From Escherichia coli (GTDB lineage: Bacteria > Pseudomonadota > Gammaproteobacteria > Enterobacterales > Enterobacteriaceae), in assembly GCF_003334815.1 (NCBI RefSeq), contig NZ_QOWO01000002.1: a stretch of 64,000 bases of DNA. One strand, written 5' to 3'. The translations under genes and the position numbers were made by a program. Under the pieces are notes generated by a model. The model had not been told where the DNA came from and made no database searches. It saw nothing but the letters and a program-made list of their open reading frames with translations. The number at the start of each line of letters is the position of its first letter. The first letter of the stretch is position 1. Shown here piece by piece: positions 19,401-26,142 of the stretch.

Positions 19401-20312
19401 ATGCGACTATTTAACTGGCGACGTCAGGCGGTGTTAAACGCCATGCCACTGGTCAAACCTGACCAGGTACGTACACCGTGGCATGAATTCTGGCGACGAT
19501 TTCGCCGTCAGCATATGGCGATGACCGCCGCATTATTCGTTATTTTATTGATTGTGGTGGCCATTTTTGCACGCTGGATCGCTCCCTATGACGCCGAAAA
19601 TTATTTTGATTATGACAATCTGAATAACGGACCTTCTTTGCAGCACTGGTTTGGCGTCGATTCACTGGGGCGTGACATTTTCAGCCGTGTCCTGGTTGGT
19701 GCGCAAATCTCGCTGGCGGCGGGCGTGTTTGCCGTGTTTATCGGTGCGGCGATCGGGACGTTGCTGGGCTTGCTCGCTGGATATTATGAAGGCTGGTGGG
19801 ATCGGCTGATCATGCGCATTTGCGATGTGCTGTTTGCCTTCCCGGGTATTTTACTGGCGATCGCTGTTGTTGCGGTGTTGGGAAGCGGCATTGCTAACGT
19901 GATTATTGCAGTCGCCATTTTTTCCATCCCCGCGTTTGCCCGCCTGGTGCGCGGCAACACGCTGGTGTTGAAACAGCAAACCTTTATTGAGTCAGCACGC
20001 AGTATTGGTGCCAGCGATATGACCGTTTTGTTGCGTCATATCCTGCCTGGGACCGTCTCTTCTATCGTGGTGTTTTTCACCATGCGCATTGGTACCTCGA
20101 TTATCTCTGCCGCCAGCCTCTCATTTCTCGGCCTCGGTGCGCAGCCGCCGACACCAGAGTGGGGAGCAATGCTCAATGAGGCTCGAGCGGATATGGTTAT
20201 CGCGCCGCATGTCGCTGTTTTTCCGGCCCTGGCTATTTTTCTGACCGTACTGGCGTTCAATTTGTTGGGCGATGGTTTACGCGATGCGCTGGATCCGAAA
20301 ATTAAAGGATAG
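19401..20312 (+). CDS. gsiD: glutathione ABC importer permease GsiD, 303 aa
   Basis: Track ORF; DppC/OppC-type permease; 2 bp after the gsiC stop. Confidence 0.93.
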
Positions 20313-20489
20313 TTACGTTTGAATATTGCTTGAAAGGGTAATCACCTCACAGGAAATTATTGCCCTAAGCAAGTGTTGTAACTTTCTGCTGATTTTGTAG
20401 AATCGGGTAATTTGGTTAAAAAGCCGCAGCAAGGGACAATTTTTGCAGCGGCACAGCGTTCAGATAGTTATTTTGTTAAATGTATTAAC

Positions 20490-22838
20490 ATGCTGAGTTT
20501 ATACGAAAAGATAAAGATAAGGCTGATAATTTTATTTTTATTGGCAGCACTGTCATTTATTGGTCTTTTTTTCATCATTAACTATCAACTGGTATCGGAG
20601 CGCGCGGTAAAACGTGCCGATAGCCGCTTTGAACTTATTCAGAAAAACGTTGGCTATTTCTTTAAAGATATTGAACGTTCGGCCCTGACATTAAAGGACT
20701 CACTGTATTTATTAAAAAATACAGAGGAGATTCAACGCGCCGTGATTCTTAAAATGGAAATGATGCCATTTTTAGACTCGGTGGGACTGGTACTTGATGA
20801 TAATAAATATTATCTTTTTTCGCGGAGGGCGAATGATAAAATCGTTGTTTATCATCAGGAACAAGTAAATGGACCGCTTGTCGACGAGTCAGGGCGGGTT
20901 ATTTTTGCCGATTTTAACCCATCGAAACGACCGTGGTCGGTGGCTTCAGATGACTCTAACAACAGCTGGAATCCGGCATACAATTGCTTTGATCGTCCGG
21001 GTAAAAAATGTATCTCTTTTACGCTACACATCAACGGCAAAGATCACGATTTGTTAGCGGTGGATAAAATTCATGTCGATTTAAACTGGCGATATCTGAA
21101 CGAGTATCTTGATCAAATCAGCGCTAATGATGAAGTTCTATTTTTGAAACAAGGCCATGAGATCATTGCCAAGAATCAACTCGCTCGTGAAAAACTGATT
21201 ATTTATAATAGCGAAGGTAATTATAATATTATTGATTCTGTCGATACTGAATATATCGAAAAAACATCAGCGGTGCCAAACAACGCATTATTCGAAATCT
21301 ATTTTTATTATCCTGGCGGTAATTTATTGAACGCATCAGATAAACTTTTTTATCTGCCGTTTGCGTTCATTATTATCGTATTGCTGGTGGTTTATTTAAT
21401 GACCACTCGTGTGTTCCGTCGGCAATTTTCTGAAATGACAGAGCTGGTTAATACGCTGGCGTTTTTGCCTGACTCAACGGATCAAATCGAGGCTCTGAAA
21501 ATTCGTGAAGGCGATGCGAAAGAGATTATCAGCATCAAAAATTCGATCGCGGAAATGAAAGATGCCGAAATTGAACGGTCAAATAAATTGCTCTCACTGA
21601 TCTCTTACGATCAGGAAAGTGGTTTTATTAAAAATATGGCGATTATTGAGTCTAACAATAATCAGTATCTGGCTGTGGGGATCATCAAACTGTGTGGTCT
21701 GGAAGCCGTGGAAGCGGTGTTTGGTGTTGATGAGCGCAATAAAATCGTCAGGAAATTGTGTCAGCGAATTGCCGAGAAATATGCGCAATGCTGCGATATC
21801 GTGACATTCAATGCCGATCTCTATTTACTTCTGTGTCGGGAAAATGTACAGACATTTACCCGTAAAATAGCGATGGTAAACGATTTTGACAGCAGCTTTG
21901 GCTACCGCAATCTGCGCATCCATAAGTCTGCCATTTGTGAACCTTTGCAGGGGGAAAACGCCTGGAGTTACGCAGAAAAACTGAAACTGGCGATTTCCAG
22001 TATCCGTGACCATATGTTCTCAGAGTTTATTTTCTGTGATGACGCGAAACTCAACGAAATAGAAGAGAATATCTGGATTGCGCGTAATATTCGCCATGCA
22101 ATGGAAATTGGCGAACTATTCCTCGTCTATCAACCGATCGTTGATATTAACACCCGCGCCATTCTGGGCGCGGAGGCGTTGTGCCGTTGGGTGTCTGCGG
22201 AGCGGGGGATCATTTCACCGCTGAAGTTCATTACCATTGCTGAAGATATCGGGTTTATCAATGAGCTGGGTTATCAGATTATTAAAACGGCAATGGGTGA
22301 ATTCAGACATTTTAGTCAGCGTGCGTCGCTGAAGGATGATTTCTTACTGCATATTAATGTTTCGCCCTGGCAGTTAAACGAACCACACTTTCATGAGCGT
22401 TTTACCACCATCATGAAAGAAAATGGCCTGAAGGCGAACAGCCTCTGTGTTGAGATCACTGAAACCGTGATCGAGCGAATTAATGAACATTTTTATCTCA
22501 ATATTGAACAACTGCGTAAACAAGGGGTACGGATATCGATTGATGACTTTGGCACCGGTTTGTCAAACCTGAAACGTTTTTATGAAATTAATCCAGACAG
22601 CATAAAGGTGGACTCGCAATTCACCGGCGATATTTTCGGTACTGCGGGAAAAATTGTGCGCATTATTTTCGACCTGGCACGCTATAACCGGATCCCGGTG
22701 ATTGCGGAAGGCGTAGAGAGCGAAGACGTTGCGCGCGAATTAATCAAATTAGGATGTGTTCAGGCTCAGGGGTATCTGTACCAGAAACCCATGCCATTCT
22801 CCGCCTGGGATAAAAGTGGAAAATTAGTAAAAGAGTAG
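20490..22838 (+). CDS. pdeI: c-di-GMP phosphodiesterase PdeI (YliE), membrane-anchored EAL-domain protein, 782 aa
   Basis: ATG at 20490 ([12 protein letters not shown]...) gives the recalled length; EAL motif in GAEALCRW and DDFGTG motif present; track ORF starts 26 codons upstream. Confidence 0.9.
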
Positions 22839-22845
22839 TTTACGT

Positions 22846-24174
22846 ATGTCCAGAATCAATAAGTTCGTACTTACAGTCAGTCTGCTGATTTTTATCATGA
22901 TTTCAGCAGTTGCCTGCGGGATCTACACTCAAATGGTAAAGGAACGGGTGTATAGCCTGAAACAGTCCGTTATTGATACTGCTTTTGCGGTGGCAAATAT
23001 TGCTGAATATCGGCGTAGCGTGGCAATTGATCTTATCAACACGCTAAATCCCACGGAGGAACAGCTGTTGGTTGGTTTGCGCACAGCTTACGCCGACTCG
23101 GTTTCCCCCTCTTATTTGTACGATGTCGGTCCTTATCTGATTTCCAGTGACGAATGTATTCAGGTAAAGGAGTTCGAGAAAAATTATTGTGCAGATATTA
23201 TGCAGGTTGTGAAGTATCGACATGTCAAAAATACAGGGTTTATCTCTTTTGACGGTAAAACCTTCGTCTATTACCTCTATCCGGTAACTCACAATCGTAG
23301 TCTGATATTTTTGCTTGGTCTGGAGCGTTTTTCTTTACTGTCAAAATCGCTGGCGATGGACAGCGAGAACCTGATGTTCTCTCTATTTAAGAACGGTAAA
23401 CCGGTGACCGGTGATGAATATAATGCTAAAAACGCCATCTTCACCGTTTCGGAAGCGATGGAGCACTTCGCCTATTTGCCGACCGGATTGTATGTATTTG
23501 CGTATAAAAAAGATGTTTATTTGCGGGTTTGTACATTGATTATTTTCTTTGCCGCATTGGTGGCAGTGATATCGGGTGCCAGTTGCCTCTATCTGGTACG
23601 CAGAGTGATTAATCGTGGTATTGTGGAGAAAGAAGCCATCATTAATAACCATTTTGAACGCGTACTGGATGGCGGGCTTTTCTTTTCGGCTGCCGATGTC
23701 AAAAAACTCTACAGTATGTATAACTCGGCGTTCCTGGACGACCTGACCAAAGCAATGGGCAGAAAATCCTTTGACGAAGATTTAAAAGCGCTGCCGGAAA
23801 AAGGCGGTTATTTGTGCCTGTTTGACGTCGATAAATTCAAAAACATTAACGACACCTTCGGTCATTTGCTGGGCGATGAAGTGTTGATGAAAGTGGTGAA
23901 AATCCTTAAATCACAGATCCCGGTAGATAAAGGTAAAGTCTACCGCTTCGGCGGTGACGAATTTGCGGTGATTTATACGGGTGGAACGCTGGAAGAGTTG
24001 CTATCGATTCTAAAAGAAATCGTTCATTTCCAGGTGGGAAGCATTAATTTAAGTACCAGTATCGGTGTAGCACATTCAAATGAATGTCCTACCGTCGAAC
24101 GCTTGAAAATGCTGGCGGATGAGCGGCTGTATAAGAGTAAGAAAAACGGCAGGGCACAGATTAGCTGGCAGTAA
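22846..24174 (+). CDS. dgcI: diguanylate cyclase DgcI (YliF), GGDEF-domain membrane protein, 442 aa
   Basis: Track ORF; intact GGDEF motif in RFGGDEFAV. Confidence 0.92.
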
Positions 24175-24183
24175 TCATTATTC

Positions 24184-24213
24184 GCAGGCCGGACAAATGA
24201 TTTTGCCCGGCCT
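24184..24213. terminator. hairpin between convergent dgcI and rimO (probable bidirectional terminator)
   Basis: 8-bp GC stem caggccgg / ccggcctg with a 13-nt loop. Confidence 0.5.
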
Positions 24214-24220
24214 GAATTAA

Positions 24221-25758: not shown

Positions 25759-26142
25759 ATGTTCGTTGACAGACAGCGAATCGATCTGCTGAACCGGTTG
25801 ATCGACGCACGCGTTGACCTCGCCGCATACGTGCAACTGAGGAAGGCAAAAGGATACATGTCCGTCAGCGAAAGCAATCATCTACGAGATAACTTTTTTA
25901 AACTGAATCGCGAACTGCACGATAAATCGCTGCGGTTGAATCTTCATCTGGATCAGGAAGAGTGGAGTGCTCTTCATCATGCTGAAGAAGCATTAGCGAC
26001 AGCCGCAGTATGTTTGATGAGTGGGCACCATGATTGCCCGACTGTTATTACCGTCAACGCCGATAAGCTTGAAAATTGTCTGATGAGCTTAACGCTGAGT
26101 ATCCAGAGCCTGCAGAAGCACGCCATGCTTGAGAAGGCCTGA
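25759..26142 (+). CDS. bssR: biofilm regulator BssR (YliH), 127 aa
   Basis: In-frame ATG at 25759 (MFVDRQRIDLLNRL...) gives the recalled 127-aa protein; track ORF starts 11 codons upstream. Confidence 0.88.
   Translation: MFVDRQRIDLLNRLIDARVDLAAYVQLRKAKGYMSVSESNHLRDNFFKLNRELHDKSLRLNLHLDQEEWSALHHAEEALATAAVCLMSGHHDCPTVITVNADKLENCLMSLTLSIQSLQKHAMLEKA

Follow-up and report, generated by a model that had tools for sequence, protein, structure and literature searches.

Do two adjoining genes, one for an enzyme expected to degrade the signal molecule c-di-GMP (the cyclic dimer of GMP) and one for an enzyme expected to make it, constitute a working unit, or do they simply lie side by side? The question is raised by pdeI and dgcI, which occur on a stretch of 64,000 nucleotides from Escherichia coli (contig NZ_QOWO01000002.1; the whole stretch is called the window hereafter, and positions refer to it unless stated otherwise) and which an initial annotation, made from the letters alone, had flagged as an antagonistic, membrane-anchored pair of a phosphodiesterase (PDE) and a diguanylate cyclase (DGC). 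Weighing the evidence given below, we hold it to be probable, with considerable room left for doubt, that the pair is a horizontally acquired, Escherichia-restricted cassette, which serves as a two-sensor source and sink of c-di-GMP. The anatomy and motifs of both proteins, the conserved synteny, the selection acting on the genes and the predicted folds of the sensors are established here. Both genes already carry names in K-12, and the domain classes of their products as well as the plasmid association of the family have been published; our additions are small and consist of residue-level evidence on a GGDEF-like domain in PdeI, the assignment of double-Cache (dCache) folds, conserved Cys pairs and a quantification of synteny and selection.

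The identity of the genes is borne out by an identical E. coli record, for which RefSeq lists gsiABCD, pdeI, dgcI, a convergent rimO, bssR and yliI, and by comparison with MG1655 (NC_000913.3), from which the window differs in one of 7,001 bases, outside both genes. The listing of open reading frames (ORFs) contains two co-oriented frames, the first opening with a TTG at 20412 and an annotated ATG at 20490 and ending at 22838, the second extending from 22846 to 24174. The gene boundaries and the step of 8 bp between the genes, as initially annotated, are exact: the spacer measures 7 nt and the dgcI ATG stands 8 nt past the last base of the pdeI stop codon, a weak Shine-Dalgarno-like AAGAG being located inside the 3' end of pdeI.

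Domain architecture of PdeI

All motifs named at the outset, intact EAL and DDFGTG in PdeI and GGDEF in DgcI, are present. Along the EAL domain of PdeI we find E562-A-L-C-R, N623, E655-I-T-E, D685-D-F-G-T-G, K706, E740-G-V-E and Q760, and the metal-binding and catalytic set is complete (N623, E655/E658, D685-D686, K706, E740/E743, Q760). The domain aligns end to end with the solved EAL domains 5yrp and 2r6o, both active structures, and its catalytic motifs are invariant in 9/9 members of the PdeI family. For YliE of strain CFT073, too, the full EAL consensus has been tabulated (PMC3484386). Judged by these residues, the EAL domain of PdeI is most likely catalytically competent.

PdeI goes beyond a simple EAL protein and is a composite, in which a GGDEF-derived domain with a destroyed active site (A-site) precedes the EAL domain, a feature missed in the initial annotation. 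Residues 150-530 receive no Pfam assignment and Pfam finds no GGDEF domain there; a single-sequence search of the PDB with residues 324-532 returned nothing relevant, the domain being visible only through pairwise alignments and NCBIfam models. BLASTP aligns residues 335-773 with a canonical GGDEF-EAL protein (P0014; E 8e-39), the PdeI sequence VTFNADLY facing ARIGGDEF, so that TFNADLY occupies the place of RxGGDEF; a second PdeI segment of 16 residues is aligned opposite LDLDRFKEANDIYGH of the same protein. The metal-binding Asp is replaced by Lys, and the positions of the substrate-binding Asn, Asp, His and Arg are all substituted. The NCBIfam models GepA and DosP align to residues 377-774 and 388-770, respectively, both far below their equivalog cutoffs, and many ordinary GGDEF-EAL proteins align with PdeI from about residue 388 in an all-against-all search. 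G412, the target of mutation in two published studies, corresponds to the Gly of the conserved GH motif within this domain.

Comparison of the nine family members yields NADLY, SADLY, NSNTY and SSDLY at the GGDEF position among Escherichia species, and NKNKY, SPYKY and SDKRF in plasmid lineages. Because these residues differ freely between lineages, the position is not under catalytic constraint. The domain as a whole is nevertheless under strong purifying selection, with a ratio of nonsynonymous to synonymous substitution rates (dN/dS) of 0.03-0.075, and a non-catalytic function is therefore implied. The linker between membrane and GGDEF-like domain, which has been termed HAMP in a preprint (bioRxiv 10.1101/2025.05.09.653004), receives no such call from Pfam here.

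The cyclase domain of DgcI

The GGDEF domain of DgcI presents the opposite picture, with G369-G-D-E-F, D327-V-D-K-F-K and N335-D-T-F-G-H. Aligned with DosC, DgcZ/YdeH and 3ign, it has kept all A-site residues (G369GDEF, D327, K332, N335, D336, H340, R367), and model TIGR00254 gives 90.8 bits where 37.4 is the cutoff. The RxxD motif of the inhibitory site (I-site) is missing: DgcI reads VDKG where DosC has RSSD, and the motif is absent from all family members, in all of which RFGGDEF is kept. The CFT073 tabulation covers the DgcI GGDEF domain as well (PMC3484386). Among four DGCs tested in Shigella flexneri by liquid chromatography-mass spectrometry, dgcI gave the highest c-di-GMP level, and changing GG to AA abolished synthesis (PMC11327459); DgcI was furthermore toxic when overproduced, in one vector orientation (PMC5635695). 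Both the toxicity and the strong production in S. flexneri fit the missing I-site. Since there is no I-site, we propose that K-12 DgcI would be an active cyclase operating without product feedback inhibition.

The periplasmic sensors

Each protein had been described as having a membrane anchor and a periplasmic region, and hydropathy indeed places two transmembrane segments around a periplasmic domain in both, for which Pfam, suggested as a check of the N-terminal regions, returns CHASE9 in PdeI and GAPES2 in DgcI. AlphaFold2 (AF2) models, built from shallow family alignments of 8-9 sequences, predict double-Cache folds for both sensors, with two alpha/beta PDC modules behind a long N-terminal helix, all of it between the transmembrane segments. 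Searched with Foldseek, the PdeI model matched dCache structures 7k5n, 6ioq, 9nj8 and 4jgo (E 1e-6 to 1e-5, TM-score 0.5-0.6), the matches including Mlp24/37, CqsR, KinD and McpU; overall, more than 50 dCache entries of the PDB were matched at E 1e-6 to 5e-4 and TM-scores of 0.45-0.6. The DgcI model matched KinD (4jgo/4jgp) and CqsR at E about 2e-5 and a TM-score of about 0.6. Homology between the two sensors was rejected: hhalign gives their profiles a probability of 0.2%, and it is only the fold class that they have in common.

Alignments across lineages show W160, C166 and C174 to be invariant in the PdeI sensor (C166-x7-C174 at 20985-21011), and an equally invariant Cys pair, C104-x10-C115 (23155-23190), in the DgcI sensor of all lineages. 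These pairs recall the CSS-domain PDEs of E. coli, which are under redox control, but a CSS domain is absent from both proteins. The CSS-domain enzymes (PdeC, PdeB, PdeD, PdeG, PdeN) are EAL proteins with two transmembrane segments and a conserved periplasmic Cys pair. PdeI shares the Cys pair with them, but lacks a CSS-domain Pfam hit and has a CHASE9/dCache-like sensor and a dead GGDEF-like domain instead.

Conservation and origin of the pair

A DgcI-like gene follows directly downstream on the same strand in 9/9 intact PdeI-like loci examined. Within a plasmid collection, order and strand (PdeI before DgcI) are the same in 37/37 records found in both sensor listings; a few of these are near-identical copies of the chromosomal type, and one apparent exception spans the origin of a circular record. 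The junctions measure 7 nt or 9 nt, or the genes overlap. Across Escherichia species both genes are under strong purifying selection, with dN/dS of 0.046-0.076 for pdeI and 0.036-0.049 for dgcI.

Paralogues on IncHI1B/IncF plasmids have the same order with overlapping ends, show full-length identities of 38% (PdeI) and 40% (DgcI) and are located directly upstream of bcsA-bcsB-...-bcsC; plasmid homologues of YliE/YliF beside bcs clusters have been described in a 2025 preprint (bioRxiv 10.1101/2025.05.09.653004). Some plasmids carry the cyclase only, and these are IS1-truncated derivatives with the cyclase left beside bcsA. A Salmonella IncFII plasmid holds a third lineage (34% and 39% identity, 9-nt spacer). 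The order is thus kept in three lineages, which have diverged to 34-40% identity, and in two genomic contexts. E. coli K-12 has roughly 4,300 genes, and since only 29 of them are GGDEF/EAL genes, a GGDEF gene would follow right after a given EAL gene by chance with a probability well under 1%. The number of 29 is that given by Sarenko 2017 (PMC5635695).

Relatives of the sensor families were found only in chromosomes of Escherichia (E. coli, E. albertii, E. fergusonii, E. marmotae, E. whittamii) and on plasmids, the absence elsewhere coming mainly from protein searches that were not exhaustive; a species-wide scan with the sensor alignment gave only four loci, from a single peptide pattern. 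One 5.6-kb contig of a Firmicutes metagenome-assembled genome labelled Sporosarcina psychrophila (DYWT01000146.1) carries a plasmid-type pair with 37% and 40% identity to K-12; because its junction sequence matches that of an E. coli plasmid locus (L002), this contig (L009) is probably a mis-binned plasmid fragment from Enterobacterales. The pair has a GC content of 0.42-0.44 and 0.45-0.50 at third codon positions, against 0.52-0.54 and 0.58-0.63 in gsiC, gsiD and rimO. The drop (20300-24220) is bounded exactly by pdeI and dgcI and reaches its minimum, 0.39, in the periplasmic sensor of PdeI. This composition suggests that the pair was acquired horizontally; the mobile ancestry of the cassette and its link to bcs genes, like the double-Cache nature of the sensors, had escaped the initial annotation.

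Transcription and expression

A functional coupling of pdeI and dgcI is supported by their conserved order, by junctions that overlap or measure no more than 10 nt, by strong purifying selection and by the co-induction that has been reported. Reports describe an induction of both genes by BolA and, in CFT073, at 37 °C (PMC12890032, PMC5605933). Their co-transcription seems likely and would probably start from a promoter upstream of pdeI. The hexamers of a sigma70-like candidate are conserved in E. coli, E. whittamii and E. albertii; a sigma70 consensus scan stayed at chance level (9 found, 8.7 expected), and the candidate is backed by its conservation alone. As a sigma54 promoter upstream of pdeI, the best match (20432-20447) was rejected, since neither E. 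whittamii nor E. albertii conserves it.

The scan for terminators found no terminator-like element at the pdeI/dgcI junction, and internal terminator-like matches were at chance level. Downstream, the hairpin between dgcI and rimO is not followed by a run of T, and the same scan made no call there. Rfam returned no match at E<=1 between 20000 and 26300. No recognisable Shine-Dalgarno sequence precedes pdeI (20410-20510). The predicted fold of the 5' untranslated region of pdeI (-24.6 kcal/mol, z -2.7) pairs a conserved CAGCGU (20454-20459) with the start region AUGCUG. With the strong temperature regulation reported for pdeI, occlusion of the start codon is conceivable from this model, for which covariation gives no evidence.

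A possible mechanism

From this architecture we infer co-transcription, gating by ligands, local action and a target, as follows. PdeI would sit in the inner membrane with a double-Cache sensor between two transmembrane segments, followed by linker, dead GGDEF-like domain and EAL domain, and would most likely hydrolyse c-di-GMP. The dead domain, to which G412S maps, would probably be a regulatory or dimerisation module relaying the state of the sensor to the EAL domain. DgcI, with a different double-Cache-like sensor between its transmembrane segments and an active GGDEF domain behind them, would make c-di-GMP without feedback inhibition. Each enzyme may be gated by its own periplasmic ligand, turning the pair into an input-controlled source and sink. 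Since an operon for cellulose synthase comes immediately after the paralogous plasmid cassette, the original task of the pair was probably to gate a PilZ-dependent cellulose synthase.

Several known systems are close to this arrangement. DosC/DosP (DgcO/PdeO), cited by Sarenko 2017 (PMC5635695) as the model case of two opposing, locally acting enzymes that share an operon, are likewise an adjacent, co-oriented cyclase and phosphodiesterase of E. coli K-12, and DosP, like PdeI, has a degenerate GGDEF domain before an active EAL domain, in keeping with the alignment of its NCBIfam model mentioned above. Unlike our pair, they are soluble haem-based O2 sensors with the order DGC-PDE and with the degradosome/PNPase as complex partner, whereas PdeI and DgcI are membrane-bound, with dCache-type sensors in the periplasm and the order PDE-DGC. 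The cdg operons of Komagataeibacter (Acetobacter) xylinus, which Tal et al. in 1998 reportedly described as pdeA-dgc pairs controlling cellulose synthase, also have the PDE directly upstream of the DGC, and their tie to a c-di-GMP-activated cellulose synthase resembles the plasmid paralogues before bcsA-bcsB-bcsC; their proteins, however, are soluble PAS-GGDEF-EAL proteins, and the chromosomal E. coli pair does not adjoin bcs genes. Close as well are the plasmid YliE/YliF proteins by the bcsA2-4 clusters (preprint of the Romling laboratory), which belong to the same two families and share the order, the position of the dead GGDEF domain, the EAL motifs and the Cys pairs, but differ in their carriage by IncHI1B/IncF plasmids, in their link to a second cellulose synthase operon and in being often truncated by IS1 to the cyclase only.

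Direction of PdeI activity and alternative explanations

PdeI and DgcI are most likely antagonists, in view of the invariant EAL domain and of the finding that overexpression of pdeI blocks the c-di-GMP-dependent phage N4, just as that of five other PDEs does (PMC7553319). A pdeH mutant also regains motility through suppressor mutations in pdeI (Reinders 2016, as related by a citing paper), and the alleles reportedly act as a gain of PDE function. As for the single genes, yliE and yliH were over-expressed in a commensal biofilm colonised by the enteroaggregative E. coli 55989a, with Klebsiella pneumoniae yliE went down and yliH up, and, in vitro, the pathogen colonised the biofilm of a yliE mutant more heavily (Da Re et al. 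2013); in CFT073, deletion of yliF alters adherence to bladder cells, and yliE is not among the mutants with altered adherence (PMC3484386).

A number of observations weigh against a cassette of source and sink. In a study published in eLife in 2024 (PMC11651652), overexpression of PdeI raised c-di-GMP about 11-fold, a rise that G412S abolished, and a positive correlation in single cells was lost with this mutation as well; PdeI is termed there a synthetase driving persister formation. The antagonism initially annotated therefore fits sequence and N4 phenotype, but stands contested by this rise. DgcI was undetectable in K-12 standard culture, and PdeI, not mentioned in the main text of Sarenko 2017, is not among the four undetected proteins (PMC5635695), an observation that speaks against a tight co-expression of the two under standard laboratory conditions. 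Two published studies by genomic SELEX (gSELEX) report in-vitro peaks of RNA polymerase (RNAP) holoenzyme (sigma54, sigma28) at K-12 coordinate 874,568, corresponding to about 22857 in the window, at the pdeI/dgcI junction, if the coordinate is read in an older frame (offset -778), as set by the papers' own peak 'inside yliI'; an independent start of dgcI is therefore possible. The Salmonella IncFII plasmid pair does not adjoin bcs genes. Our literature search gave no experiment on co-transcription, on contact between PdeI and DgcI or on a local target, and the literature searched held no in-vitro enzyme assays of PdeI or DgcI from K-12. The initial interpretation is supported in part: the conserved unit stands (9/9 loci, 37/37 records) and antagonism is the most probable relation, a locally acting module being a candidate reading.

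How, then, could PdeI raise c-di-GMP? That it is itself a synthetase, or bifunctional by virtue of its divergent GGDEF domain, as the eLife study holds, we regard as highly improbable: direct synthesis would have to come from a position that reads NADLY, has lost its metal-binding Asp and substrate-binding Asn, Asp, His and Arg, goes unrecognised by Pfam and varies freely among Escherichia species and plasmid lineages, while the EAL motifs are invariant and the N4 phenotype is PDE-like. If real, the rise must be indirect. PdeI might activate or de-repress a cyclase through contacts of its transmembrane, sensor or dead GGDEF-like region, DgcI being the candidate partner; G412S would then break the contact, and the pair would be an activator-enzyme couple or a switch. 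The rise and its loss with G412S would be accounted for, and the eLife paper never mentions dgcI, which starts 7 nt downstream of pdeI, nor do its supplements hold data on it. A binding or regulatory role also suits a domain kept by purifying selection while its active-site residues drift; the pair has co-diverged as a unit, and the GG to AA mutant of S. flexneri DgcI still has an effect on plaque size and on invasion, a hint at effects between proteins (PMC11327459). Yet overexpressed pdeI phenocopies bona fide PDEs towards N4, the motility suppressors point to a gain of PDE function, DgcI is undetectable under standard conditions and interaction data for the pair were not found, so that we consider such indirect activation unlikely. 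More doubtful still is a bolder form of it, in which PdeI, through its dead GGDEF-like domain and/or its dCache and transmembrane region, would bind and switch an I-site-less, potentially runaway DgcI, ligands flipping the net outcome between synthesis and degradation in a self-contained bistable switch originally mobilised with plasmid cellulose synthase operons. If true, it would reconcile the rise seen in eLife 2024 with the PDE-like N4 and motility-suppressor phenotypes.

A different explanation is that the genes are neighbours only through their joint arrival, are expressed independently and act on the global c-di-GMP pool without any local module. The detection of PdeI but not of DgcI (PMC5635695) and the gSELEX peaks at the junction speak for it, as do the differing single-gene phenotypes, adherence for yliF (PMC3484386) and resistance of the biofilm to colonisation for yliE (Da Re et al. 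2013), and the IS1-truncated plasmids, which retain the cyclase alone beside bcsA. Order, strand and close junctions, 10 nt at the most or overlapping, have, on the other hand, survived divergence to 34-40% identity, the same cues induce both genes, and there is no convincing internal promoter motif; no convincing sigma54 -24/-12 element, in particular, was seen at the junction, and the window holds fewer matches to the sigma54 consensus than chance would give (176 found, 224 expected). Independent genes thus appear to us a minority possibility, and the reading as a coupled source and sink is the one we prefer.

The locus in E. coli and its features

By Megablast, each of 5,426 complete genomes of E. 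coli gave a match, and 5,381 of them covered at least 80% of the query. Loss of pdeI or dgcI in E. coli is rare: IS1 is inserted in the EAL region of pdeI in one strain (locus L004, 3028-3725), and an IS1-associated deletion takes pdeI and nearly all of dgcI in another (L005, 5292-5989). A common truncated dgcI allele (P0195, 399 aa) was considered and rejected as an assembly artefact, because gsiD, pdeI and rimO are fragmented in the same source assembly (GCA_020555995.1). In the draft of E. albertii NBRC 107761 (L008, 9001-9078), the frame of pdeI changes within the first 26 codons, through a frameshift peculiar to the strain or through an error of sequencing, pdeI of other E. albertii (P0002) being intact.

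Some E. coli carry a module of a relE/parE-family toxin and a helix-turn-helix antitoxin (26_141088; L003, 5445-6150) in the 46-bp gap between dgcI and rimO, the insertion site coinciding with the position of the hairpin in K-12. The biofilm regulator gene bssR/yliH occupies 25759-26142, two genes downstream of the pair. Coordinates of the features discussed are collected in Table 1.

Table 1 Features of the pdeI-dgcI locus, with positions in the window and the evidence for each
Feature	Position	Strand	Evidence
Conserved upstream block TCACAGGAAATTATTGCC, candidate regulator site in the gsiD-pdeI gap	20347..20364	+	near-invariant in 4 Escherichia species
Sigma70-like pdeI promoter candidate, TTGTAA-16 nt-TAGAAT	20376..20403	+	9/12 consensus matches
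pdeI (yliE, b0833) coding sequence, 782 aa	20490..22838	+	ORF; RefSeq annotation; Pfam CHASE9 and EAL
PdeI transmembrane segment 1 / signal anchor, residues 12-30	20523..20579	+	Kyte-Doolittle score 3.1, 19-residue window
PdeI periplasmic sensor, residues 31-285, CHASE9 at 35-150	20580..21344	+	Pfam 2.3e-62; AF2 pLDDT 84.6, pTM 0.81
PdeI transmembrane segment 2, residues 286-304	21345..21401	+	hydropathy score 2.79
PdeI cytoplasmic linker, residues 305-387	21402..21650	+	no Pfam hit; dN/dS 0.02-0.04
PdeI degenerate GGDEF-like domain, residues ~388-530	21651..22079	+	BLASTP, NCBIfam and all-against-all alignments; dN/dS 0.03-0.075
PdeI EAL domain, residues 532-767	22083..22790	+	Pfam 2e-69; all catalytic residues
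pdeI-dgcI spacer, 7 nt (TTTACGT)	22839..22845	+	sequence; junction kept in Escherichia species
dgcI (yliF, b0834) coding sequence, 442 aa	22846..24174	+	ORF; RefSeq annotation; Pfam GAPES2 and GGDEF
DgcI transmembrane segment 1, residues 8-26	22867..22923	+	hydropathy score 2.64
DgcI periplasmic sensor, residues 27-223, GAPES2 at 26-229	22924..23514	+	Pfam 2.3e-143; AF2 pLDDT 74.6
DgcI transmembrane segment 2, residues 224-242	23515..23571	+	hydropathy score 2.56
DgcI GGDEF domain, residues 295-437	23728..24156	+	Pfam 1.6e-24; A-site intact, no RxxD I-site
GC-rich hairpin between convergent dgcI and rimO, candidate bidirectional terminator	24185..24214		RNA fold -20.3 kcal/mol, z -2.9

Implications

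As a piece of annotation the locus is textbook K-12, and the pair as originally flagged adds nothing new. Its interest lies in two other points. Regarding the recent claim that PdeI is a synthetase, the sequence evidence points to the neighbour dgcI, or to another cyclase, as the origin of any rise in c-di-GMP. Regarding the family, pdeI and dgcI appear as a compact, mobile two-sensor cassette, and the plasmid paralogues standing before cellulose synthase genes provide a concrete hypothesis on the effector that the chromosomal pair may serve.

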